Shown: positions 13,254 through 26,672, numbered from the stretch's first letter. The stretch: 64,000 nt of DNA from Thermodesulfobacteriota bacterium (GCA_965220925.1 OZ244851.1:1500040-1564039); one strand, 5' to 3'. The notes: generated by a model not told the origin, from the letters alone. Program-made: numbers and translations.

Positions 13254-15050
13254 TTAACCTTGTGGTTTTTCTCCCATTATGCTTATTCCGGCTTCAAGAA
13301 GTTGTTCCGGATCGACTTCCGACGGAGCTCCGGTAAGAGGGCATGAGCCTTTCTGGGTTTTCGGGAAAGCTATTACGTCTCTTATTGATTCTTCACGGGC
13401 GAGAAGCATAAGCAACCTGTCCAGACCAAGAGCTATACCTCCGTGGGGAGGCGCTCCGAATTCAAGCGCTTCCAGAAGAAAACCGAATTTTTCCCGCGCT
13501 TCTTCCTCTCCTATCCCTATTACTTCAAAAACTTTTTGCTGTATGTCCTTTCTGTGAATTCTCACGCTTCCCCCGCCTATTTCCACTCCGTTTAGAACTA
13601 TGTCGTAGGATTTCGAATTGACGTTTTTCGGGGAATTTTCGATTTTCTCCACATCCTCATCTTTGGGAGCCGTGAAGGGATGATGAACGGCGGTGTATCT
13701 TTTCTCATTGGCGCTGTACTTGAAAAGCGGAAAATCAACTACCCAGAGAAACGCAAACTCTTCTTGATCGATGAGACTTAACGTTTTTCCAAGACTCAGT
13801 CTTACGTTTGACATTACCTGGTTTACCGTTTCGATTGAGTCAGCTCCGAAAAACACAATATCCCCTTCTTCCATCTCCAAGGTTTCCGATAGAAGCTCTC
13901 GTTCTCGCTCGCTTAGGAATTTAACTATGGGCGACTGCCATTGTTCGCCACCGACCCTGATCCACGCAAGCCCCTTCGCCCCTAGAGAAATCGCGTATTC
14001 GGTAAGATCGTCTATTTCTTTTCTGGTGAGGTTTTCGGCTTTACCCTTGACGTTAAGAGCTTTTACAGCTCCGCCTTTGTCGACGGCCGAGCGAAACACT
14101 TTAAATTCCGAATCTTTGAATATCGAGGATATGTCTTTTAGCTCAAGACCGAACCTTGTGTCGGGGCAATCTGTTCCGTATTTCTCCATAGCTTCTTCAT
14201 ACGACATTCTCGGTATTGGAGAGGAGATATCGATTCCTTTGGTCTTTTTAACGATCGTCCGTATCATGTCCTCCACTATAGAAATTACGTCTTCTTCGGA
14301 GACAAAAGACATCTCCATGTCTATCTGGGTAAATTCCGGTTGACGATCGGCTCTTAAGTCCTCATCCCGGAAGCACTTAACTATCTGGTAGTATCTGTCG
14401 AATCCCGAAATCATTAAGGTCTGCTTCAATATCTGCGGCGACTGGGGAAGTGCGTAGAACTGTCCTTGATTAAGTCTGCTTGGAACGAGAAAATCCCTTG
14501 CTCCTTCGGGAGTCGATTTCGTAAAGTACGGGGTTTCGATTTCGAGAAACCCGTTTTCATCAAGGTAGTTTCTTACCGCCGAGGAAACTTTGTGGCGAAA
14601 AATGATATTATCCAGCATCGGCGGTCTTCTAAGATCGATATAGCGATACTTAAGCCTCAGAAGTTCGTCGGCGTTAACTTCGTTCTCTATAAGAAACGGT
14701 ATTACTTTAGAGGTGTTTAGAACCTTTATTTGCTCCGCCACCACTTCGATGCTGCCGGTTTTAAGATTCGGATTTACGGTTTCTTCCGTTCTCGGCGCGA
14801 CTTTTCCCCTTACCGCTATTACCCATTCGTCGCGAAGGTGTTCCGCGGTCTCGTGAATTTTTACGTCATGCTCCGGATTAAAAACTATCTGACAGAGTCC
14901 TTCCCTGTCTCTGATATCCACGAAAATCACCCCGCCGTGATCTCTTCTTGACTGCACCCACCCCATCAGAGTCACCGTGCGGTCAATATCGTCTTCGCCT
15001 AGACTTCCGCAAAGATCCGACCTTCTCCATTCTCCCATAAGTTCAAGCAT
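13254..15050 (-). CDS. aspS: Aspartyl-tRNA synthetase
   Basis: 598 aa class II aaRS. Motifs: GWV..RRDHGG.IF.D.RD (OB anticodon domain), FRDEDLRADRQPEFTQID, GGGSVRIH, GLDRL. Confidence 0.95.
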   Translation of the reverse strand: MLELMGEWRRSDLCGSLGEDDIDRTVTLMGWVQSRRDHGGVIFVDIRDREGLCQIVFNPEHDVKIHETAEHLRDEWVIAVRGKVAPRTEETVNPNLKTGSIEVVAEQIKVLNTSKVIPFLIENEVNADELLRLKYRYIDLRRPPMLDNIIFRHKVSSAVRNYLDENGFLEIETPYFTKSTPEGARDFLVPSRLNQGQFYALPQSPQILKQTLMISGFDRYYQIVKCFRDEDLRADRQPEFTQIDMEMSFVSEEDVISIVEDMIRTIVKKTKGIDISSPIPRMSYEEAMEKYGTDCPDTRFGLELKDISSIFKDSEFKVFRSAVDKGGAVKALNVKGKAENLTRKEIDDLTEYAISLGAKGLAWIRVGGEQWQSPIVKFLSERERELLSETLEMEEGDIVFFGADSIETVNQVMSNVRLSLGKTLSLIDQEEFAFLWVVDFPLFKYSANEKRYTAVHHPFTAPKDEDVEKIENSPKNVNSKSYDIVLNGVEIGGGSVRIHRKDIQQKVFEVIGIGEEEAREKFGFLLEALEFGAPPHGGIALGLDRLLMLLAREESIRDVIAFPKTQKGSCPLTGAPSEVDPEQLLEAGISIMGEKPQG

Positions 15051-15289
15051 GTAAACGGATATTCTTCCCAGGTAAAGAATTGGCTAAGGATACTAAATTG
15101 ATTCGCATTGGCAAGCTTGAAAGGAAGTTCCAAACGTTGGTTTTTTCTCTTATTCCATAATTGCGAAACGGTGCGATAGGAGGGGTATTTCGGTTTTTCC
15201 TCGCGGCTTGTTTTTTCGTCTTTTTTCAATAGAATTTAACCCGTAAAATCAAAATTTGTTCGGGTACTGAGAACAAGGAGCTCCGCTAA

Positions 15290-16063
15290 ATGAAAAAGGA
15301 AATTTTAAATAAAAGGAATCTGTTTTTTGCCGTTTCGCTCTGTCTGATTTTTCTCGTGGGCAGTTGCGCCGCGACTAGGACTCTGATAGAGAAAAGAAAA
15401 CTAAACGTTGAGACAAAAATGTCGGAAACGATTTTTCTTGAGCCGCTAGCTCCCGAGAAAAGAATAGTCTATGTCGATATAAAGAATACTACGGACAAAG
15501 AACTCCCCGACATCGAGAACACTATTAAAGGCAACATAGTCTCAAACGGTTTCAGGATTACCGAGGATCCGGGCGAAGCAAGTTACATTCTCCAGGCAAA
15601 TATTTTAAAAGTTGGGAGGACAGATATTGAGGAAGCGAATTATATGCTTGCGGAGGGTTATCAGGGAGTAGTCGAAGGCGCGGTTCTGGGAGGGGTTATA
15701 GGTGGCGCCTTGGGAGGAGATGTGGATGAAATTAACGAGGGTACGGTTATCGGAGCTATCGCGGGCGGAGTAGGGGGTTTCCTTTTCGACTCGCTTGTCA
15801 CCGACGTTCTTTTCACAATGGTTACCGATATTCAGGTTAGAGAGCGCGTTCAGGCGGGAGAGCTTGTTTCTCAAAGTCAGGACACCGACGCGTCTCAAGG
15901 TTCCTCAACTAAGATTAGGCAAAGTTCAAGCGTCAGCGACGTTAAATGGAAGATATACAGAACTAGAATTATAAGTGTTGCAAACAAGGCAAATTTGGAT
16001 TTCGAAGAAGCGAAGCCGCATCTTCAAGCTGGTCTTACCAGGTCGATAGGCGGGATTTTCTGA
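15290..16063 (+). CDS. traT: TraT-like outer-membrane lipoprotein (surface exclusion / complement resistance family)
   Basis: 257 aa with a lipobox (LVGSC). Long colinear matches to F-plasmid TraT as I remember it: KRKLNVETKMSETIFLEP; YILQANILK; MVTDIQVRER; YRTRIISVANKANLDFEEAKP.L...L..SI..I. Confidence 0.8.
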   Translation: MKKEILNKRNLFFAVSLCLIFLVGSCAATRTLIEKRKLNVETKMSETIFLEPLAPEKRIVYVDIKNTTDKELPDIENTIKGNIVSNGFRITEDPGEASYILQANILKVGRTDIEEANYMLAEGYQGVVEGAVLGGVIGGALGGDVDEINEGTVIGAIAGGVGGFLFDSLVTDVLFTMVTDIQVRERVQAGELVSQSQDTDASQGSSTKIRQSSSVSDVKWKIYRTRIISVANKANLDFEEAKPHLQAGLTRSIGGIF

Positions 16064-16064
16064 A

Positions 16065-16086
16065 CTTGTTTACGAAGACAAACAAG
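16065..16086 (+). terminator. Weak hairpin downstream of the traT-like gene
   Basis: A 7-bp stem (cttgttt / aaacaag) with an 8-nt loop, directly after the stop codon. The trailing U-tract is poor (cattgatt). Confidence 0.3.
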
Positions 16087-16197
16087 CATTGATTAAAATG
16101 GGAGTAAAATTCAAAAATGGATCATTTCTATTAATCTAATTCTCTAGCTTTCTGACAGTGTGGATGCAACAAAACCCGCTGGTACTGAAACTATCGC

Positions 16198-16232
16198 GTT
16201 GTGAATAGCGGGCAATTTTCAGTCAGTTAAAT
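16198..16232 (+). CRISPR. Solitary CRISPR repeat, same orientation as the array, 4,236 bp upstream of array repeat 1
   Basis: GTTGTGAATAGCGGGCAATTTTCAGTCAGTTAAAT. It is identical to the 36-nt consensus except that one A is missing from the terminal A-run. No further repeat was found upstream. Confidence 0.88.
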
Positions 16233-16235
16233 TTG

Positions 16236-16247
16236 GTGGCATGCCAC
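16236..16247. promoter_or_regulatory. Perfect 12-bp palindrome (candidate operator) centred on the ATG of the first cassette ORF
   Basis: GTGGCATGCCAC is its own reverse complement. It begins 4 nt after the solitary repeat and overlaps the start codon at 16241. Confidence 0.35.
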
Positions 16248-16450
16248 GTCTGTTGAGCAGAAAGGTATTTCGGACGACGGTCATGCTGAAGAGATTACAG
16301 CATAAACGAATTCTGGAAATGACTGTAGCAAACGACGCACCGATAGTATGGTTGCTACGCCACGCTTTCAACTTTTACTTGGAGAACCAGGGCGAACCGC
16401 CTCAAGGTTCGGACGTGAAGACCTGCCCATATTCCGGCAGTGATGTGTAA
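16241..16450 (+). CDS. Small protein (69 aa), possibly a ribbon-helix-helix (CopG/Arc-like) regulator
   Basis: The pattern is beta strand RTTVMLK, helix LQHKRILEMTVAND, then helix IVWLLRHAFNFYLENQ. It has no SD and lies 12 nt upstream of the SIR2 gene. Coding status is not certain. Confidence 0.4.
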   Translation: MPRLLSRKVFRTTVMLKRLQHKRILEMTVANDAPIVWLLRHAFNFYLENQGEPPQGSDVKTCPYSGSDV

Positions 16451-16462
16451 AGAAAGGCAGTT

Positions 16463-17884
16463 ATGACCGAGCAATCCAAATACCAGCTTCTTTCTCCTGT
16501 GTCCGCTGGGGAAAGCGAAGATTTGCTGGCAGGGAAACCTCCCGAAGATGCACTACGACGTATTCAGGCGCTCCTCGCTGATTGGTTCCGAATGGAAAAC
16601 GTCATTGTCTTGACGGCTGCCGGGTGCTCAGTCGGTGCCGGTGGTCGATTGATGGCCGGCCCTAAGACGAACAATCTCGAATGTCTTGTTATCGATGCAG
16701 TCGAGAAATGCAAGCTTCCTCAGAAGGCGGTGTCAATCATGCGCCATAGGAAGGAAACTTGGCCGACAGAAGAGGATGGTGGGCCCTTCGGGTTTGAAGA
16801 TTGGCTCAGCTACCTGTTCAATGCGTCAGGCCTGACGAACCCGGATAGCTCGCCGATCAAGGCGGTGATCTGGAAAGATGGCGTGCCAACGGACAGGAAA
16901 TCTTCTCTGATTCTCGCCGACAGTGATTTAGCTGAACTACATAAACTGCTCGAGAAGGCCATCTTCGCTGAATGCGCCCTCCAGATTGATCGTGGCGAGC
17001 TCTCAGGTACGAGCGACGGTCAGCCATCTGGCCATATTCCCTTTCTAGCGAAACTGATTGCCCGCGACACGAATCTCGGGCGGACCCATCTCTTCACACT
17101 TAACTACGACACCCTGTTTGAGCAGGCGATGGAAGAGCTGGGCATCCAATACTTTGACGGATTTTCTGGCGGAGCTAGCTCTCGCTTTGATCCAGCTGTT
17201 TATGGGCTTGATATTTATTACCCTGGCGATGTTTCCGAGGGGCGGGTTCGCCGCTTCGACAGATTTCTGCAATACTACAAGCTTCACGGTTCCCTGCATT
17301 GGTATATCGAAGATGACGGAATTTATCGCGCTCGCCACCGCGACCTGTCGTTTGCCAGCGACTACAGGAAACTCCCTGCTGAAGATAAGGCGGCAAAGCT
17401 ACAGTCGGAAGAATTCTCCAGAATCAGTTCCTTTGGCATCCTGCCAACCTCGCAGAAGTTCACTCAGACGTTTGACATGCCTTATGCGCATCTGTTCCGA
17501 CTCTTTCATGCACGCCTGAACCAACCGCAGACGTTCTTGCTTGTAATCGGATACGGTTTTGGCGACGACCATGTGACGCGGATCATCGAAACGGCCCTCA
17601 TGAATCCGTCTCTAGTAATGCTAGTTGTGGAGCCCAATCCAAAAGGCGCAATCGTGGAGAAAGTCCATCGCTATCAGAGCTTGGGTCAGAGGGCTTTTGT
17701 CCTGACTGAACGACTTGGTAAGGATGAAAACTGTTCATACAAAATCGCGACGTTCGCTGATTTCGCGCAGAACATCATGCCGGATGTAAAGTGGCTCGAT
17801 GACTACAGGTGCCTTCGTTCTTTTGAAGAGCAGCTTAGGAAGACAGAAGACAGGAAGTCGGGTGCCTCGGAGAGTGCCACCTAA
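16463..17884 (+). CDS. SIR2-family (SIR2_2-like) NAD+-utilising protein, effector of a SIR2-HerA defence system
   Basis: 473 aa. Rossmann start VLTAAGCSVGAGG, TLNYDTLFEQA (the NYD motif), catalytic-His motif YKLHGSLHW, and IGYGFGDDHV. Its stop overlaps the HerA start (TAATG). Confidence 0.85.
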   Translation: MTEQSKYQLLSPVSAGESEDLLAGKPPEDALRRIQALLADWFRMENVIVLTAAGCSVGAGGRLMAGPKTNNLECLVIDAVEKCKLPQKAVSIMRHRKETWPTEEDGGPFGFEDWLSYLFNASGLTNPDSSPIKAVIWKDGVPTDRKSSLILADSDLAELHKLLEKAIFAECALQIDRGELSGTSDGQPSGHIPFLAKLIARDTNLGRTHLFTLNYDTLFEQAMEELGIQYFDGFSGGASSRFDPAVYGLDIYYPGDVSEGRVRRFDRFLQYYKLHGSLHWYIEDDGIYRARHRDLSFASDYRKLPAEDKAAKLQSEEFSRISSFGILPTSQKFTQTFDMPYAHLFRLFHARLNQPQTFLLVIGYGFGDDHVTRIIETALMNPSLVMLVVEPNPKGAIVEKVHRYQSLGQRAFVLTERLGKDENCSYKIATFADFAQNIMPDVKWLDDYRCLRSFEEQLRKTEDRKSGASESAT

Positions 17885-19977
17885 TGGAACAGCCTCGCAT
17901 CATAGGGCATGTAGTTGCTGTCAATGGCTTCAGGCTGAAAGTGGAACTTTCCCCTGACGCAAGGTCATCGTCTCGGGCCACGCCGGATGGGGTGCAGCGC
18001 GCAGTCGCCATTAACTCCTTCCTGACATTTGACGTGGGGGCTGGCACACATGCAATCGGGCTGCTCAGCGATCTTGAAGCTCGGGAGAGCTACGACCCGA
18101 CCCGTGACGAAGAGCTTTCTCTGGAACTGACGAAGCCACGGCGGATCGCGTCAGTACAATTGCTTGGAACGGTGAAGCAGACTGGTAAATCCAGATGGAA
18201 ATTTGATCCAGGCATAACGGTCCTGCCGACTCTTGATACGCCAGCTGAGGTCGCAAATCCCGCTGTTCTGTCAGGTATCTTCGGTCATCCGCCCAAGCGG
18301 AACAAACCGCGCTGTTGGTCAGATGGGAGTTACGACTTTCCACTGGAACTTGGCCATCAAACAGGTGACGAGAATGTGCGAGTGAAAGCATCCTTCAATG
18401 ACCTTTTCGCCCGGCCGATTGCAGTTGTAGGCAACACCGGGTCTGGAAAGTCGTACACTGTTGCGAGCTTAATTCGAGGCATAATAGATGATAAGAAGTT
18501 CACGATCACTTCCAAGGCGGGACCCCATATCTTCATCTTGGATATAAATGGCGAATATGCAGGTGCCTTTCCTGATAATTCTCAGTCGTCCTATGTGAGG
18601 GACCCGAACAAGATTTACCTAAACGGACAGGAATTCTGTCTACCTGCGTGGCTCATGAATGGGGAGGAGGTTTGCGACTGGCTTCAGGCGTCCGAAGCAA
18701 CACAGGAGCCCGTTCTCAAGGACTGGTGGTCGATTGCCAAGGCCAATCGAGGCGGCGCGGCATCATATGATCCTTTACAAGTCGCCATAAGAAAGATTGA
18801 TTCTGCGTTATCTTGGCTTGATGATCCGAAACAGCCGGCCGTGGGCACCTTCGACGTGTATATCAGTCACGCCCAGCAATATGCGTCTGATATTGACTGG
18901 ACTGAATTTAGTAGCATTCCATGCTGGAAGCCGAATGAGACGGATCAGTGGCGAAAGGTCGATAACGATAGGAAGGTTAGGGATAAGCTCAGCGAAATTC
19001 GATCAGGGTTGCTGGACAGGATTTCGGCGCATCAGAATGAGGGTGTGAACTTTGCCAAAACCGCCGATGCGCCTCGGTTCATCGCGGTGCGCGAGTTTTG
19101 CGATCCCAATCTGGTCGATAGATCGACTGACCAGGAAGGTAGCAAACGGATTGATCAGTATCTACTCACGTTGAAACTACGGCTTCGGACACGCCTTGAT
19201 GACAGACGCTGGCAGTCGTTTTTCAGCTATGAGGAACAGGGTATCCAGAGCTACCAGGACTGGATGCGAAAGCTCGGGTTCGGGCAAGATTCCAGTTCAA
19301 GGGTTTCCGTTGTCGACTTCTCAATGTTGTCTTCGGAGGTTCTGCCCTTCGCATGTGCGGTCCTCGGTAGGCTTCTCCTTGAAACTAGAGAAATGCTGCG
19401 TCCCGATGTGCGCAGTCGATACCCTTGGGTGCTGGTTTTAGAGGAAGCCCACAACTATGCGAGACCGTCAGGTTATGTAGAAGACCGAGGACAAAACCTG
19501 TCTAGGCGCGCATTCGAGCGCGTCGCCAAGGAGGGGCGTAAATTTGGATTGTCACTCATTGTGGCCAGCCAGCGCCCCAGTGAGATAAGTCCTACGATTA
19601 TTAGCCAGTGCGCCAACTTCTTCTCCCACCGGCTCCAAAACCCAGATGATATCGACCATTTCCGACGCATCATTCCTAAACAGGCCCAGCGACTTCTTGA
19701 TCAGGTGACTGTGCTTGCAGCGGGCGAAGCGATTGTATTTGGCAGCTCCGTCCACGTTCCTACACGTGTTCAAATCAAGCTGCCGATCCAAGAGCCATGG
19801 AGTTCGACTGCCGCACCCTTTGTAGAGTGGAGCGGGGAAAAGGCGTTTCCGCTTAAGGATGTCATCGAGAACTGGGGTCTCGACAAAGAAATTCCTGAAG
19901 CCGAAGCTGTATCACCTGCTGAACATCCTGATGCAACAAGTTCGGCTTGTGAACTCGATGATGAAATTCCATTTTGA
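17884..19977 (+). CDS. herA: HerA/DUF87-type ATPase, partner of the SIR2 protein
   Basis: 697 aa. N-terminal HAS-barrel-like IGHVVAVNGFRLKVEL, Walker A VVGNTGSGKS, ILDINGEY, Walker B WVLVLEEAHNY, and GRKFGLSLIVASQRPSEISPTIISQCANFFSHRL. Confidence 0.88.
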   Translation: MEQPRIIGHVVAVNGFRLKVELSPDARSSSRATPDGVQRAVAINSFLTFDVGAGTHAIGLLSDLEARESYDPTRDEELSLELTKPRRIASVQLLGTVKQTGKSRWKFDPGITVLPTLDTPAEVANPAVLSGIFGHPPKRNKPRCWSDGSYDFPLELGHQTGDENVRVKASFNDLFARPIAVVGNTGSGKSYTVASLIRGIIDDKKFTITSKAGPHIFILDINGEYAGAFPDNSQSSYVRDPNKIYLNGQEFCLPAWLMNGEEVCDWLQASEATQEPVLKDWWSIAKANRGGAASYDPLQVAIRKIDSALSWLDDPKQPAVGTFDVYISHAQQYASDIDWTEFSSIPCWKPNETDQWRKVDNDRKVRDKLSEIRSGLLDRISAHQNEGVNFAKTADAPRFIAVREFCDPNLVDRSTDQEGSKRIDQYLLTLKLRLRTRLDDRRWQSFFSYEEQGIQSYQDWMRKLGFGQDSSSRVSVVDFSMLSSEVLPFACAVLGRLLLETREMLRPDVRSRYPWVLVLEEAHNYARPSGYVEDRGQNLSRRAFERVAKEGRKFGLSLIVASQRPSEISPTIISQCANFFSHRLQNPDDIDHFRRIIPKQAQRLLDQVTVLAAGEAIVFGSSVHVPTRVQIKLPIQEPWSSTAAPFVEWSGEKAFPLKDVIENWGLDKEIPEAEAVSPAEHPDATSSACELDDEIPF

Positions 19978-20468
19978 GATTTGTCGGTTTCAGGCGGGAT
20001 GCTGACGAAAGTTCAGGTCTGCTACTGGAATTCGTGATGGTATGGAGGTCGTCTCCGAAATTTCGATACCTCATCCGCGCCGCAGAGTCTTGTTGCTACC
20101 AGGCTAGTCAACGGTCGCTGTGCCAAGCCAGTTACCCAAGCACCGAACTTGGGGAGTAGTTCACGCCCGAACTGTCTGATTTTCGATTACCGTTGATTGC
20201 TACAGCCGGGAACATAGCACCTTCGCTACAGTTTTTTAATCAAGCGAGCCTAGTTGCCTACCTTCCTGACTGTGGGCCCTAGAACCGCTTGCGCCAATCC
20301 AGACGGTGGTCGGCGCTCTGGAGAGAGGGGCTGCCGACGTTCCCGACCATTGGCACGACGGAGAATTCAAGATGCAGACTACCAAAGCTCTCAAGGGCGG
20401 TGCCTGGACCTGACTTGTTCACAACTTCGGCCACGACTGTTGACTCATGTGTACCGCTTCGCTAGGCG

Positions 20469-22084
20469 GTTGTGAATAGCGGGCAATTTTCAGTCAGTTA
20501 AAATTAACGTCACGGTCTCCGCCTCGGATCCCTAGTTGTGAATAGCGGGCAATTTTCAGTCAGTTAAAATGTCGCGCACGGGCAGCCGGTTAACGCTTTG
20601 TTGTGAATAGCGGGCAATTTTCAGTCAGTTAAAATAATGGCGAGTTAACGAATTGTCTTTTGTCAGTTGTGAATAGCGGGCAATTTTCAGTCAGTTAAAA
20701 TAATGGCGAGTTAACGAATTGTCTTTTGTCAGTTGTGAATAGCGGGCAATTTTCAGTCAGTTAAAATTTGCCCCCTGCGGCTGACACCGCACTAGCGTTG
20801 TGAATAGCGGGCAATTTTCAGTCAGTTAAAATAGATCGTCGCGTGCTTGCCAAAATGGAAATGTTGTGAATAGCGGGCAATTTTCAGTCAGTTAAAATGT
20901 CTAATTATTTGAGGTGGGAATCTTCTCTGTTGTGAATAGCGGGCAATTTTCAGTCAGTTAAAATCTTAACGGAATCTCTTTTAACGCTTCCAAGGTTGTG
21001 AATAGCGGGCAATTTTCAGTCAGTTAAAATGATTTTGGGAAAAACAATCAAACTCGTATTGTTGTGAATAGCGGGCAATTTTCAGTCAGTTAAAATGGAA
21101 CTGTGACAAGTTCTAAAACCGTACAAGTTGTGAATAGCGGGCAATTTTCAGTCAGTTAAAATGGGCGCACCATTGAGAAGGTATTGGCATCAGTTGTGAA
21201 TAGCGGGCAATTTTCAGTCAGTTAAAATCGAATTCGGCGGGAATAGAAACGTTACCGAGTTGTGAATAGCGGGCAATTTTCAGTCAGTTAAAATAATGAA
21301 TCGGGTGGCGATGGAAATCCTCGAGTTGTGAATAGCGGGCAATTTTCAGTCAGTTAAAATCGCCGTGTCGTCGGCCGTTATGGTTATGTTGTTGTGAATA
21401 GCGGGCAATTTTCAGTCAGTTAAAATTATAAAATTTCTTCCAATACCACGCCAAATGTTGTGAATAGCGGGCAATTTTCAGTCAGTTAAAATCGAAAACG
21501 GCGCTTGCCGAAAGTGTTTTAGTTGTGAATAGCGGGCAATTTTCAGTCAGTTAAAATCGAAGGGAACAGGGAGCAGCTTGAGCGCTTGTTGTGAATAGCG
21601 GGCAATTTTCAGTCAGTTAAAATTCTTCGTTCGTGTCGTTAAACGCGACGTTGTTGTGAATAGCGGGCAATTTTCAGTCAGTTAAAATGAATACGCCCGC
21701 GACCCTAACCAGTTCCCGGTTGTGAATAGCGGGCAATTTTCAGTCAGTTAAAATATGACGACGAGGGTCTATCGCCCAGTTCTTGTTGTGAATAGCGGGC
21801 AATTTTCAGTCAGTTAAAATGGAAGCTGGTTTGACACTATCGACATTTCAGTTGTGAATAGCGGGCAATTTTCAGTCAGTTAAAATTTTAGGGAATGGTG
21901 CTTGCTTAAAGGCTTGGTTGTGAATAGCGGGCAATTTTCAGTCAGTTAAAATGCTGGAGCGTAGAGGACCGCGACTTGGCCAGTTGTGAATAGCGGGCAA
22001 TTTTCAGTCAGTTAAAATCCTCTCCGCCGAGCTCCGCGAGTCTGTCCTGTTGTGAATAGCGGGCAATTTTCAGTCAGTTAAAAT
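20469..22084 (+). CRISPR. CRISPR array with 25 identical 36-bp repeats and 24 spacers; crRNA sense is the + strand
   Basis: Repeat: GTTGTGAATAGCGGGCAATTTTCAGTCAGTTAAAAT. Repeat starts: 20469, 20535, 20600, 20666, 20732, 20797, 20863, 20929, 20995, 21061, 21127, 21193, 21259, 21325, 21391, 21457, 21522, 21588, 21653, 21719, 21785, 21851, 21917, 21983, 22049. Twenty spacers are 30 bp and four are 29 bp. Strand is assigned from tracrRNA complementarity. Confidence 0.97.
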
Positions 22085-22134
22085 ACATCTCGCTATAATG
22101 CCGTGAGGATCGGTTATCTGGGCTTCCAAACAAG

Positions 22135-22464
22135 TTAAAAAAGGGAAATTTGTTTGGGAGCCCTTTCTGTTTTCTTTCGTTTTTTTCCATAAAAAACTTG
22201 CATTTTTTCAAACTGCTTGTCTGTGACATTAATAACCCTGACTTCTCCTTTTGGTGGTAAAGCATTTCGAACCCTACCAGAATGTATGTAGGCGTTTTCA
22301 TCGCTGGAACAATGTCTGATATAAACAGAAAACTGAAGCATGGAAAAACCATCCTGAAGAAGAGACTTGCGGAATAATGCATAGGAACGTCTGTCTGCTT
22401 TAGTATCTGTGGGCAGATCAAACATTACTATGACCCACAAAGTTTTATATCCCCCGAAAATCAT
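22135..22464 (-). CDS. cas2: CRISPR-associated endoribonuclease Cas2
   Basis: 109 aa with the typical N-terminal strand WVIVMFDLPTD. It lies directly downstream of cas1 and adjacent to the array. Confidence 0.9.
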   Translation of the reverse strand: MIFGGYKTLWVIVMFDLPTDTKADRRSYALFRKSLLQDGFSMLQFSVYIRHCSSDENAYIHSGRVRNALPPKGEVRVINVTDKQFEKMQVFYGKKRKKTERAPKQISLF

Positions 22465-22466
22465 TT

Positions 22467-23378
22467 TTATATCAAAAGCATTTCTTGTTGTTTCTTGATC
22501 ATTAGACTTGGTATTTCCAAAGATTCCGGTCCATCTGTTAAAGCCTTCTTTAAACTTGCCGCAGTATGTTGTAAAGCTACCATGAATGGAAGTTTCTTAC
22601 CTCTGAATATTAAAGGTTCAGACAAAGAAGACAGTAAAAAGGATTTTGTTTTTTTGTTGATATCGGACATCTTCTTCTCCCATAGTTTGTAGACTTTTCT
22701 ATCAACAATAGGTCTGAATGGTTCCATGAGATCATCTGCTAAGCACATCGGGTTATATTGATTATGATGGTGGATACCTAAGGCAGGATGCAACCCTGTG
22801 CCACAAAGAGCACGGGCTACAGACGCTCTCAGCAAAGCATATCCATAATTTAAAAGAAAGTTTACACCTTCAGCCTTCTGATCTCTTCTAAAGTTTTTAC
22901 CAAACATAATAGGCCAGTAGACTCTCGAAGCTTGAGATTCAACATTGTCTGGATCTCCGCTTTTTACGCGTGACTTCATTGACTCTAGAGTGGAAGAATT
23001 CTTATCGAAAGTAACCAATGCTTTTATTTGAGATTCTATTTTGGCAATGACTATTTTTTGCCAGAGTCGTTTCTTTAAGGGTTTTCTCACACTAGTTTGT
23101 ATGTTTAGGATTTTGCTATGCAGGGAATTGCCGGATAATGGCAGTAGAACCGATATTGGGAGGTGTTTATGGTCGCAAAAAATAATTATGCAGTTGTTCT
23201 GCTGACAGGATGCTATTAGATTTGAAGAAATTGTTACTGAAGGACTTGATACTATTAGCACTCCCATATCTTCAATGGGGATTCTTTCAACTTCTCTTTT
23301 CTGCTGCTCAATAATAGCCTGGAGGTTTCTCGCGTGAAGATAAGATGGGGTGCTGATATCAACAATACGTTTGATCAT
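22467..23378 (-). CDS. cas1: CRISPR-associated integrase Cas1 (type II)
   Basis: 303 aa. The C-terminal catalytic region is GLHPALGIHHHNQYNPMCLADDLMEPFRPIVD. Confidence 0.92.
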   Translation of the reverse strand: MIKRIVDISTPSYLHARNLQAIIEQQKREVERIPIEDMGVLIVSSPSVTISSNLIASCQQNNCIIIFCDHKHLPISVLLPLSGNSLHSKILNIQTSVRKPLKKRLWQKIVIAKIESQIKALVTFDKNSSTLESMKSRVKSGDPDNVESQASRVYWPIMFGKNFRRDQKAEGVNFLLNYGYALLRASVARALCGTGLHPALGIHHHNQYNPMCLADDLMEPFRPIVDRKVYKLWEKKMSDINKKTKSFLLSSLSEPLIFRGKKLPFMVALQHTAASLKKALTDGPESLEIPSLMIKKQQEMLLI

Positions 23379-23389
23379 TTGTTTGATCG

Positions 23390-26300
23390 CTACCGGCAGT
23401 TAGACAGATACCCAAGTACATCTATCGATTCTTTTCGCATAGAAAAGTTTTCCATTAGTACCCTGATTCTTTTCCGCCTTTTCTGATTGTTATTTAATAA
23501 AGTTGCCGCACTATGGAGTCTCAAGATCAATCTTTTTCCATCTGGGTCGAGTGTTTGTACTCGATAAAATTCTCTCTTTCCATTTTCTTCTATGCTTACT
23601 GTATCATTAATACACAGATAGGTTATATATTCACGATCTTCCCCATGCTCAATTTTTATAATAGGTTCATTCAATGTTCTTGCCCTTTTTGCGGCTTCCA
23701 TAGTCGTTACAAACTTGGTTTCATATTTTCCGTCTTTATGATTTCTGGTTATCTCCACATGGTGATTATTTCCGTATGGCAGAATGCGCAAGATTTTATC
23801 TTTATTCCACGAAGCGGTATGTTTCCAGTAGGAATCTAATTTTAGTGTTTTTGATGCCCAGACCCGTACCCGCCGGATTTCATCCCCAGTTTTTGGGTGC
23901 AGTAAGGGCTTTTCTGGCAATTTTTTCATTGCGTTTTTTATGTTTCCACCTTGTTCCCAAACATACAATTCAATCGCTTCTTTAATTATTGGGCAAATAA
24001 TATTTTTTTTATCTCTATCAGTCATATCCGCAAGCATTTTGCGGACCACGACACCATCTTTTCCATCGGGCCCCTTTCTTATTCCATAAGCTGTTTCCTC
24101 GTGAAAAGCCCCAGTTAATTTTCTGTTTGTCGCATGCGACACTATCATCGTCTCCAGTCGCTCAGAAAGATTATCTCGAAGTTCTGGAATCTGCGGAGGT
24201 ATCTCCATTCCGTGCTCGGGTGATATGAAATCATTTTCAGACTCAGAAGCTAAATGAACGATTTTTTTATAAAGGCTACGGTTTGTGAGGGCTATTACGG
24301 TCGCGTCAATAGCGTGATGTCTGTGGTCTTCTCTATTTTTCTCGGCGGTATCTCCCAAAAGACTGTTGAGTCCCCACTGATGACGCAACCAACTCGTTGC
24401 ACCTCCTTTCGTATAAGAAATGTCGCAACCAAGGCTTTTTAAGTATTTCCCCGTCTCTCTTGATATATATCTCGTGTCATTTAGTTGGTTATTTATAAAA
24501 TTTTCGGTCCCATCAAGTTTTTTCATAAAAAATCTTTCTCTCTTCGGCAGTGGAAAATCTTTTGAAGTTGCTACAATCGCATCCCATTTGTCCGTCTCCC
24601 CAAATGCTTCCCAAGGAGTTCTGTCTCCTTTTTCTCTGTTCTCTTGGGAAAAACAGAGAACTTTATTCATGTAGGAATTGTCGAGAGTTCTTTTATAAGG
24701 CAGTATGTGGTCGATTTCTGTTTCATCAGTAAAAAGAGCGGTTTGGCTTATCATTTTCCCACTATAAGCACATTTCCTTCCGCTTTCCTCCCAGAGACGG
24801 TATTTCAGCTTGTCTTGATAACTTATGTTTTTTCGAAGATTAAGATGAGGGTTTTTATCTCTGATTATGCCGTATTGTTCTTCCGCTCTTTCGTTTGCTT
24901 TAGTATTTTCGTTCTGTCTCGCTAGAGTTTCTTTGTATCTTTTCGTATTCATTTCAAGATCTCTAGCCATTTCTATTCTTATTGCTTTCGGTTTCCCGTG
25001 TCTCTTTATAATCGCGTTAACAACGCGCCGAATTTCGTATAGAGCTTTCTGAACTATCGGATTAGGTATCCAAGGTGGAGAACGAAGCAAGTCATAATTT
25101 TCACTTTCAGTTTGATTGATTTTGTATCCGGCAGCTTCCACAGCATCGGGATATTTTTTCCCTTCTTCGAGATGAGGCAAAATTTTTCTTAGTGCTTTTA
25201 GAGATAAGTTCGCATGTTCTTCTTCTAGTTCTAAAACTGCCAACCTAGTCGCTTCTTCCTCAGAGAATCTCCAGCGATTTAAAAGACGCTTTCTTAGTCC
25301 TTTTTTAGAAGTGTATGAAACAATATCTTCAACAAGCAATAATCGGTCGTTTTCGTTAAGCGAGTCCCATTTGCTTCCAATGGTTTCTCTTATATCAAAT
25401 GCCGTAAGATTTCCTTTTAATCCGTTTTTCTTCCCTTGAACTTTTTGAAGGTTGAACTTGGTTTTCTTTTTGAGTTTTAGAAGCGTGATAAGTTTTGACC
25501 ACGTAATACGATTTGTTCTCTCAAGTTCCTCAGCAAGGGTTTTTTTCTGCCCATAGGATAACTCTATTTCAGTCTCTCCTGTCTCGGGATCTTCATAAGA
25601 GAGATTGTTTATATCCTGCCAGTAACGAAAACGCTGAAATTCAATACGGGCATGCCTACTTCTCTGAAGCTTAGGTTCCAGAGAACAGCGTCCTACCCTG
25701 TCCGGTTTTAACTTCAGAGGTCTCTGGGAGAATATGATTTTTTCAAGTTTTTCTCCTATATCTTCCGTGTAAAGCCTTGGATTGGATTCAGATTGCTTTT
25801 TCCATATTGCGTCAAACTCATCTAGATACATCGCTCGATCGGTATGACGGTCATGGAATGAACCCCTGTTTCGCTTGCGCGCAAGTCCGGCCAGATATTC
25901 TCCCAAGGTCCTGGCTCCGTGCTTGTATATCTCTTCTCTGAGTTTTTTTATTTCTCCTTTCAGTTTCCCCTCGTCTTTATCTTTCTCTCGAGCATTTTCA
26001 TCTTCTTTTTCAAGTATGGCGCGAGCGTTTCTATCGTCTTTTAAATCCCCGAACGAGGTTTTACGATTACTGAGAAACCCCCTTCGCGCACCCAAATGCA
26101 GTATGGCTCGTCCGAACTCATAAGGAGTTAGTTCTTCATCTAAAGCTTTTTTTCTTAATAGGTAAGGGTCTCCTAGACTATTAAGCTCTTCTTCTGGTGT
26201 GGGGTTGTTTTTCAGTATTTCCGGAAGAAAGCCTTTTAGGATGAGATAATTCTTGAGACGGGTTTTACGTCTGCTACGGCGTTGTATCTGTCTTCTTTGA

Positions 26301-26491
26301 AGGCGAGATTCCCTTCGTTTCCTGTTTTTAGGAGTTGGAGATTTGTCTTCAACCGAGCGGATGAATATACGACTTCCACAGTCAATAAATTCAATTGGTT
26401 GTCCATCCTGTTCCCTTATTATGCTCCAGCCAATTGAGTTGGTTCCTACATCTAATCCTATTGCGTATTCGGACAATTTTAGTCGATTCAT
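23390..26491 (-). CDS. cas9: Cas9, compact type II-C-like (1033 aa)
   Basis: RuvC-I YAIGLDVGTNSIGWSI, Arg-rich bridge helix RRESRLQRRQIQRRSRRKTRL, HNH EIDHILPYKRTLDNSYMNKVLC...ENREKGDRTP, and RuvC-III HHAIDATVIA. No csn2 or cas4 is present in the locus. Confidence 0.95.
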   Translation of the reverse strand: MNRLKLSEYAIGLDVGTNSIGWSIIREQDGQPIEFIDCGSRIFIRSVEDKSPTPKNRKRRESRLQRRQIQRRSRRKTRLKNYLILKGFLPEILKNNPTPEEELNSLGDPYLLRKKALDEELTPYEFGRAILHLGARRGFLSNRKTSFGDLKDDRNARAILEKEDENAREKDKDEGKLKGEIKKLREEIYKHGARTLGEYLAGLARKRNRGSFHDRHTDRAMYLDEFDAIWKKQSESNPRLYTEDIGEKLEKIIFSQRPLKLKPDRVGRCSLEPKLQRSRHARIEFQRFRYWQDINNLSYEDPETGETEIELSYGQKKTLAEELERTNRITWSKLITLLKLKKKTKFNLQKVQGKKNGLKGNLTAFDIRETIGSKWDSLNENDRLLLVEDIVSYTSKKGLRKRLLNRWRFSEEEATRLAVLELEEEHANLSLKALRKILPHLEEGKKYPDAVEAAGYKINQTESENYDLLRSPPWIPNPIVQKALYEIRRVVNAIIKRHGKPKAIRIEMARDLEMNTKRYKETLARQNENTKANERAEEQYGIIRDKNPHLNLRKNISYQDKLKYRLWEESGRKCAYSGKMISQTALFTDETEIDHILPYKRTLDNSYMNKVLCFSQENREKGDRTPWEAFGETDKWDAIVATSKDFPLPKRERFFMKKLDGTENFINNQLNDTRYISRETGKYLKSLGCDISYTKGGATSWLRHQWGLNSLLGDTAEKNREDHRHHAIDATVIALTNRSLYKKIVHLASESENDFISPEHGMEIPPQIPELRDNLSERLETMIVSHATNRKLTGAFHEETAYGIRKGPDGKDGVVVRKMLADMTDRDKKNIICPIIKEAIELYVWEQGGNIKNAMKKLPEKPLLHPKTGDEIRRVRVWASKTLKLDSYWKHTASWNKDKILRILPYGNNHHVEITRNHKDGKYETKFVTTMEAAKRARTLNEPIIKIEHGEDREYITYLCINDTVSIEENGKREFYRVQTLDPDGKRLILRLHSAATLLNNNQKRRKRIRVLMENFSMRKESIDVLGYLSNCR

Positions 26492-26543
26492 TATTCGGAC
26501 AGTTAGTTAATTAAATTGCTTTTGTAAAACGTATAATGTAAAC

Positions 26544-26672
26544 TTTAGTTTTGAAAAGTCTATAACTGACTGAAAACTGCCATAAAATTTGCTATTCATA
26601 ACAAGAAGCAAATGTTTCGCAGGTAATCTCTAAGGAGAACCAGGGCCCTCGCATTCGGGGGCCTTTTTTTTT
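26544..26672 (+). ncRNA. tracrRNA (5' end approximate)
   Basis: It is divergent from cas9. A TATAAT lies at 26532-26537. The anti-repeat spans 26563-26602: TAACTGACTGAAAACTGCC pairs with the repeat 3' half, there is a 9-nt bulge ATAAAATTT, and GCTATTCATAAC pairs with the repeat 5' end GTTGTGAATAGC with one G-U. A 3' tail ends in a strong terminator. Confidence 0.75.
26644..26672 (+). terminator. Intrinsic terminator of the tracrRNA
   Basis: Stem GGCCCUC / GGGGGCC (7 bp including one G-U), loop GCAUUC, followed by nine T residues. Confidence 0.8.

Follow-up and report, generated by a model that had tools for sequence, protein, structure and literature searches.

How does a complete defence operon come to lie within a CRISPR array, in the place of a single spacer? 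The question is raised by a stretch of 64,000 nucleotides (nt) from a Thermodesulfobacteriota bacterium (GCA_965220925.1, OZ244851.1:1500040-1564039), the whole of which is called the window here; positions are counted from its first letter. In it, a SIR2-HerA operon separates a solitary copy of the CRISPR repeat, R0, from the other repeats of a type II-C array. The answer proposed here is that R0 is native, and that about 4.2 kb of foreign DNA probably entered the oldest spacer slot by illegitimate recombination, as a tolerated insertion. Several claims of a preliminary description of the locus are taken up along with the results that bear on them.

The interrupted array and the operon within it

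A repeat search of the window returns 26 copies of the 36-nt repeat GTTGTGAATAGCGGGCAATTTTCAGTCAGTTAAAAT, all on the + strand, where the chance expectation is 0. Twenty-five are perfect and span 20469-22084; the remaining one, R0 (16198-16233), matches at 35 of 36 positions, its sole mismatch being A35T (...GTTAAATT). Between R0 and array repeat 1 lies an insert of 4,235 bp (16234-20468). The preliminary description had placed an insert between two direct repeats, and had recognized the solitary repeat, with its 35/36 match, as the only non-consensus copy of the 26: all this holds, but both measures were off by one, as the repeat ends at 16233 rather than 16232, and the insert is 1 bp shorter than the 4,236 bp reported. 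The features from traT to the end of the array are the following; "donor" refers to conjugative elements, described further on.

15290-16063, + strand: traT, a conserved host gene bounding the variable interval on the trailer side (Pfam TraT, 230 bits; the gene order traT-aspS-sucA is kept in relatives)
16064-16197, + strand: AT-rich flank of 134 bp, from traT to R0, without homologue in relatives
16234-16236, + strand: TGG, 3 nt between R0 and the start of donor homology, possibly a remnant of the old spacer
16237-20096, + strand: segment with 88% DNA identity to a module carried as cargo by alphaproteobacterial conjugative elements, containing the next three genes and a further 119 nt
16241-16450, + strand: open reading frame (ORF) of 69 amino acids (aa), whose ATG lies 7 nt past R0; the conjugative-element orthologue is 66% identical and gives a weak RHH_1 match
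16463-17884, + strand: SIR2, 473 aa, of a family of NADase effectors (NAD+, nicotinamide adenine dinucleotide), by Pfam, PADLOC and PDB alignment
17884-19977, + strand: HerA ATPase, 697 aa, by Pfam, PADLOC and PDB; its start overlaps the SIR2 stop
20097-20468, + strand: orphan tail of 372 nt, without ORF; no homologue found in relatives, conjugative elements, plasmids or the window itself
20469-22084, + strand: type II-C array, in which 25 perfect repeats of 36 nt alternate with 24 spacers of 29-30 nt, transcribed towards cas2

Spacers 3 and 4 (20636-20665 and 20702-20731) are identical, AATGGCGAGTTAACGAATTGTCTTTTGTCA, a spacer-repeat unit having been duplicated in tandem close to the array's old end. 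The spacers have no match in the cassette, elsewhere in the window or in the conjugative elements. Spacer-guided recombination and Cas9 targeting of the donor were rejected on this ground, the ends of the insert not being duplicated spacers either.

The three ORFs of the insert are co-oriented and are followed by a non-coding 3' stretch. The two large proteins match the Pfam families SIR2_2 and DUF87/HerA; in PADLOC the former scores 707 bits over its full length, the latter 1029 bits over residues 1-667. SIR2 aligns with the solved SIR2-HerA complex (8j4u/8su9, E=9e-30), with conserved NYD (LNYD/TNYD) and KLHGSL motifs, while the second protein matches HerA chains deposited in the PDB for SIR2-HerA and for related complexes; the sequence itself shows its Walker motifs, GNTGSGKS (A) and VLVLEEAH (B). 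Stop and start codons of the two genes overlap in TAATG (17881-17885). By all criteria applicable to a sequence, namely catalytic SIR2 motifs and an adjacent, co-oriented HerA with Walker A and B, the gene pair is a SIR2-HerA system, as initially claimed: the profile searches proposed as a check place the two proteins in the SIR2 and HerA families. The 491 bp following HerA (19978-20468), also reported before as a non-coding tail, contain no long ORF in any of the six frames.

In systems of this family, a HerA-scaffolded SIR2 NADase depletes NAD+ on infection. The operon in the window is presumably active in defence and, once expressed, would act in the same way. It shares with the known systems (PADLOC models; 8j4u, 8su9) the two-gene organization, the overlapping stop and start, the full-length matches and the motifs; it differs from them in the upstream 69-aa ORF, which it has in common with the conjugative-element variant, and in lying inside a CRISPR array, without its native promoter.

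The guanine-plus-cytosine (GC) content is 52.5% in the insert and 55.6% in its orphan tail, as against 47.1% in the whole window and 38-40% in the cas genes. The compositional contrast noted in the preliminary description is therefore real, but smaller than its single 100-nt sample (55%) implied. The CRISPR-Cas locus, too, has a composition unusual for this genome: the cas operon (22135-26491) has 38-40% GC, with a GC content at third codon positions of 0.33-0.35, while flanking housekeeping genes have 45-48% and 0.46-0.54, respectively.

Array polarity and the interval beyond the oldest repeat

To place the insert within the history of the array, the two array ends have to be told apart. Features on the cas side are listed here.

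22085-22190, + strand: cas2-proximal flank, the acquisition or "leader" side, conserved in all relatives
22135-22464, - strand: cas2 (Pfam, PADLOC)
22467-23378, - strand: cas1 (Pfam, PADLOC)
23390-26491, - strand: cas9 (Pfam, PADLOC)
26543-26672 (5' end approximate), + strand: trans-activating CRISPR RNA (tracrRNA), divergent from cas9, with an anti-repeat at about 26563-26601 that includes a 9-nt bulge, then a GGGCCC...GGGGGCC hairpin and a T9 terminator

Neither csn2 nor cas4 is present at the locus. The presence of cas9, cas1 and cas2 only, of a tracrRNA with its anti-repeat and of 36-nt repeats assigns the system to type II-C. The tracrRNA terminator fixes the CRISPR RNA (crRNA) strand as +, directed towards cas2. 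Seven related loci were compared, taken from metagenome-assembled genomes (MAGs) labelled Thermodesulfobacteriota at NCBI and from ENA contigs, with Cas9 68-76% identical where recorded; an equivalent anti-repeat is found upstream of cas9 in every one of them. The nearest named Cas9s, at 57% identity, belong to Candidatus Dadabacteria and Candidatus Mycalebacterium. The conserved gene order is era-(photolyase)-cas9-cas1-cas2-array-[variable]-traT-aspS-sucA.

The flank on the cas2 side is conserved in all eight loci (the window and its seven relatives), while the cas-distal flanks are mutually unrelated. It consists of a semi-conserved CGCTAAA right after the last repeat, a candidate for the acquisition-side "leader", followed by a hairpin and T-run terminator which overlaps the 3' end of cas2. 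On the crRNA strand, this hairpin and terminator (22120-22190) are 83-87% identical in all relatives. At the opposite end of the array, three relatives (L005, L009 and L014) have a degenerate terminal repeat, each with 5 mismatches. Type II-C arrays are reported to acquire spacers at their last, downstream repeat, the first one being the oldest, an "extra" repeat, which is found mutated in 60% of systems and has to go on serving as promoter for the first spacer (PMC12080349). The polarity of the array is thus established: the old end is cas-distal, and acquisition takes place at the cas2 end.

The conserved cas2-side flank and the degenerate cas-distal repeats of relatives indicate R0 as the oldest repeat of the array itself. 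This also follows from its carrying the strain's own variable core, GGGCAATTTT, which is seen in none of the relatives; two of these, L006 and L010, share one core with each other. The insert, as a consequence, occupies the oldest spacer slot, in agreement with the earlier suggestion that R0 is a trailer-end repeat. R0 resembles the extra repeat of other II-C systems (PMC12080349) in its cas-distal position, in being the sole mutated repeat of the array and in keeping a 3' box similar to a -10 element. The difference lies in what comes next: a 4.2-kb operon, in place of the oldest 30-nt spacer.

The interval from the array trailer to traT, variable in the conserved gene order, holds other genes in five of the relatives.

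L004: HepT-MNT toxin-antitoxin
L006: second CRISPR adaptation module (Cas4-Cas1, Cas2) and array
L009: JAB-ThiF E1 and multiubiquitin-E2 pair, with two MNT genes
L013: truncated Dam-type methyltransferase and MNT
L014: HEC-01 (AAA ATPase and DUF4276) and MNT

In all five, these genes are found beyond the terminal repeat, in the same orientation as traT and the array. The interval is therefore a hotspot for defence and toxin-antitoxin cargo, which abuts the CRISPR trailer. The window departs from this arrangement in two respects: the breakpoint is one repeat further in, and the MNT gene is absent.

Source and expression of the insert

The closest HerA proteins, 89% identical, are found on many contigs, including that of Constrictibacter sp. 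MBR-5 (GCA_040549485.1), within conjugative elements, as indicated by neighbouring genes for an AAA_34 helicase, Toprim, YAcAr, DUF736, HTH_17, a TraF-type S26 peptidase, SLT and DUF3363. In these elements (loci L016-L023) the same three genes occur, with the same lengths (69, 473 and 697 aa) and identical spacing. DNA homology with the window extends over 3.86 kb, at 88% identity: it begins 3 nt past R0, 4 nt before the first ATG, and ends 119 nt past the HerA stop. In the conjugative elements, the module lies among transfer genes, with a YAcAr gene on one side and a 237-aa ORF on the other, and has its own upstream region, while the copy in the window is cut at the two points just mentioned. 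No repeat-like sequence is present at the homology boundary of the closest elements. The 69-aa gene is missing from more distant SIR2-HerA pairs, which are placed after type III restriction genes; this indicates that the copy in the window derives from the variant of the conjugative-element type.

Judged by this identity, the insert is foreign in origin, as previously held. Its differences from the conjugative element suggest, in addition, a long residence under selection. Of 453 substitutions separating it from the conjugative element, 296 are changes from G/C to A/T in the window, 101 are in the opposite direction; differences at the third codon position are 98 out of 149 in SIR2 and 146 out of 240 in HerA. 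Taken together, AT bias and third-position differences indicate that both genes have been under purifying selection, while drifting to the lower GC content of the host. The 69-aa ORF, a putative regulator, behaves differently: identity to its orthologue falls to 66%, where SIR2 and HerA reach 89%, and its differences are even over codon positions, which suggests that it is relaxed, after loss of the native promoter and operator. The locus documents the transfer of a defence module between phyla, from an alphaproteobacterial conjugative-element type of cargo to a recipient whose Cas9 is closest to named Cas9s of Candidatus Dadabacteria and whose relatives are deposited as Thermodesulfobacteriota MAGs.

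Since donor homology begins 4 nt before the ATG, the operon has lost its native promoter. A possible substitute is found at the 3' end of R0, where TAAATT (16228-16233) forms a -10-like box, 7 nt before the ATG at 16241. Among the repeat variants of relatives, T1, A2 and T6 of this hexamer are kept, and only position 5 varies. In the repeat of Campylobacter jejuni, the 3' end carries a TAAAAT box, to which we take the repeat hexamer to be equal. The operon would probably be transcribed from the box in R0, by read-through from traT, or from both; use of the repeat as promoter is suggested by analogy and by the conservation pattern, repeat promoters having been described in Neisseria and Campylobacter (PMC5965381). 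A transcript starting from R0 would be leaderless, or nearly so; SIR2 has a Shine-Dalgarno sequence of its own. A scan for terminator-like sites between HerA and repeat 1 gave none, so that operon transcripts may run into the array.

Entry into the array

Terminal inverted repeats and a target-site duplication are both lacking at the ends of the insert, which contains no gene for a recombinase, for replication or for transfer. It therefore has neither the inverted repeats, target duplication and transposase of an insertion sequence (IS) or transposon, nor the integrase or excisionase of an integrase-dependent element; the donor-like elements, for their part, have no repeat-like site comparable to an attP. 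As we infer it, the captured piece would consist of the complete module of 69-aa ORF, SIR2 and HerA, as found in alphaproteobacterial conjugative elements, together with the 372-nt orphan tail, and would have been joined to the array by an illegitimate event, dependent on neither transposase nor integrase, at the edge of the hotspot between array trailer and traT. The succession of repeat, insert and repeat would then be a by-product of the breakpoint position, not the signature of a dedicated cassette mechanism. Such an insertion would be tolerated: new spacers enter at the cas2 end and each repeat is thought to carry a promoter, so that the insertion should be harmless to CRISPR function, with only the oldest spacer lost. 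Among the origins proposed in the preliminary description, insertion into the terminal spacer is the one that fits the data best.

If TGG is the start of the disrupted spacer, the last 27 nt or so of the tail may be its remainder. The old spacer would then measure 30 nt, from TGG to ...CGCTTCGCTAGGCG, between R0 and R1; a search of viral contigs and JGI metagenomes for the last 22 nt of the tail returned no exact match. The tail as a whole corresponds to no Rfam family and contains no tRNA.

A number of observations weigh against this explanation, as regards either the insertion or the expression that goes with it. That the insert is bounded on each side by an exact, full-length repeat, and leaves no more than 3 nt unexplained on the left, is also compatible with integrase-type chemistry, and the 372-nt tail is unexplained. 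The MNT gene found next to traT in relatives is missing in the window, which points to more than one rearrangement. A simple scan called no sigma-70 promoter in any repeat, and the repeat does not feature a full extended -10, having AGT instead of TGn. Finally, an empty site or sibling strain was looked for by repeat, family-pattern and protein searches, and none was found.

Illegitimate insertion into the slot behind a native R0 has to be compared with the possibility that the insert is what remains of a mobile element which targeted the array and then lost its mobility genes: a Tn7-like transposon, a phage which, like PhiAP1.1, used the repeat as its attachment site (attB), or an IS-borne composite. 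Array-targeting elements have precedents (PMC11837452), a real IS occupies a spacer in an array of the same family, that of L005, and the unexplained tail could be a remnant of the vehicle. Yet the six-frame translation of the tail reveals no remnant of a transposase or integrase, inverted ends and target duplication are lacking, and donor homology starts so close to the repeat, at 3 nt, that a left transposon end could not be accommodated. A decayed element is therefore unlikely.

Protein-coding DNA bracketed by the repeats of an otherwise intact array is in itself not new; the preliminary description had known of no defence operon placed between the repeats of a Cas9 array that looks active. 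The gene ermT lies inside a II-A array of Dolosigranulum pigrum (10.1101/2021.04.16.440249), and Tn7-like transposons have been found in spacers, phage PhiAP1.1 in repeats (PMC11837452). The window shares with these cases, and with IS, the bracketing by repeats and the tolerance of insertions near the old end. It differs from them in having no transposase, integrase, inverted ends or target duplication, and in its cargo, an entire defence operon, which seems to have been taken up as a bare piece of DNA. We found no description of a defence operon that is complete, free of recombinase genes and set in a spacer slot, at 7 nt behind the extra repeat of a II-C array.

A more general reading takes the extra repeat as a ready-made promoter and landing pad: slots at the trailer end would express captured, promoter-less defence genes, and cassettes could be lost, regained or exchanged among related strains by recombination between repeats. 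If the extra repeat does drive the operon, a CRISPR repeat promoter would have been naturally reused for a second, unrelated immune system, and the old end of II-C arrays would be a safe harbour for gene capture. The arrangement is known from a single occurrence, in one strain, and with no empty site it is an anecdote, supporting no general mechanism: as a rule for such arrays, the landing pad is decidedly unlikely. Its more extreme version, in which Cas1-Cas2 itself integrated the 4.2-kb fragment, is much less likely.

As the preliminary description proposed, the insert could also have arrived by homologous recombination with a mobile element carrying a solitary repeat or a mini-array; the element would be circular, and hybrid repeats would be left on both sides. 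The topology fits a single crossover, the sole variant base of R0, at position 35, is on the insert-proximal side, and solitary repeats, mimicking that of the host, do exist on phages and plasmids (Racr, PMC10651486). The repeat at issue, in contrast, is chromosomal, lies beside traT and carries the strain's own core; the closest conjugative elements have no such sequence at the boundary of homology, the repeat family is absent from viral contigs and JGI metagenomes, and the insert has no genes for replication or transfer. These observations make a repeat-bearing donor highly unlikely.

Aberrant integration by Cas1-Cas2, another origin previously suggested, would have taken up a kilobase fragment as a giant spacer and duplicated the repeat. 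It would account for full-length repeats on both sides, for an R0 of native type and for the mere 3 nt left over. A spacer acquired by Cas1-Cas2 is expected on the leader side, with a length of 29-30 nt; the insert, in contrast, is found on the trailer side, with 24 spacers separating it from the acquisition end marked by the conserved cas2-side flank (see PMC12080349), and its 4,235 bp make it about 140 times longer than the strictly sized spacers. This origin is extremely improbable. We know of no precedent for the integration of a kilobase fragment by Cas1-Cas2.

The window derives from an 808-kb contig (ERZ26695579) of a metagenome assembly with 7.5x coverage. Both junctions are spanned, with 99.99% identity and one indel, by an independent contig, ERZ25072670 (10,833 bp, "2x"), which was assembled from a different sample and reaches from traT into cas9; it tells against the chimeric assembly that the preliminary description wished to exclude. 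The same HerA and Cas9 are also present on a 1.56-Mb contig, and identical spacers assign all three contigs to the same strain. A chimeric join, at the repeats, of two different organisms, although the assembly is metagenomic, with the coverage just given, and GC content shifts at the junctions, is barely conceivable in view of this independent contig, of the need for the cassette's true genome to have the same 36-nt repeat on both sides, and of the AT-biased divergence from donors, suggestive of amelioration in a host of lower GC content.

No GTDB representative genome contains the repeat in its exact form, and a search with the family pattern retrieved diverged relatives only; exact TraT, Cas9 and HerA proteins occurred only on contigs of the same strain. 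The empty site that the preliminary description proposed to look for in relatives was accordingly not found. Three relatives were examined as possible further cases of cassettes in spacers. In L005 (same genome as L007 / OZ219878.1), an array of 12+11 repeats is split by an insert of 2,754 bp (15209-17962). This was rejected as a second case, being an ordinary IS with 26-nt inverted ends and a CTATTG duplication: it contains a 219-aa ORF and a DDE-like ORF of 603 aa, with weak MULE/ISL3/DUF6431 matches, and is inserted exactly at a repeat-spacer junction, beside an intact 30-nt spacer. With L005 explained as an IS and a single occurrence in one strain, the notion of a CRISPR-repeat-flanked defence cassette as a system in its own right is not supported. 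L013 did not provide a third case either: what might be a degenerate repeat past its methyltransferase fragment reaches only E=5 with a hidden Markov model (HMM) of the repeat, and is not credible. In L014, a "long spacer" of 119 nt proved to be a scaffold gap of 100 N.

Two minor observations concern the same relatives. In L014, a solitary, degenerate repeat-like sequence, GTTGTCAATAGCGAAGGTCGGGGCTTTCAGTCAGTTAAAGT (21141-21180, + strand; repeat HMM E=3e-5), is located in the aspS-sucA spacer, some 30 nt upstream of where sucA starts; it has the orientation of sucA, opposite to that of the array, and the window gave no equivalent. In L013, at the cas2-proximal end of the array (14398-14428), the 3' half of the repeat and the adjacent flank are partly duplicated (CAGAAATTCAGTCAGTTAAAATACTCTGCGCC, present twice), which may be the scar of a faulty spacer integration at the acquisition end.

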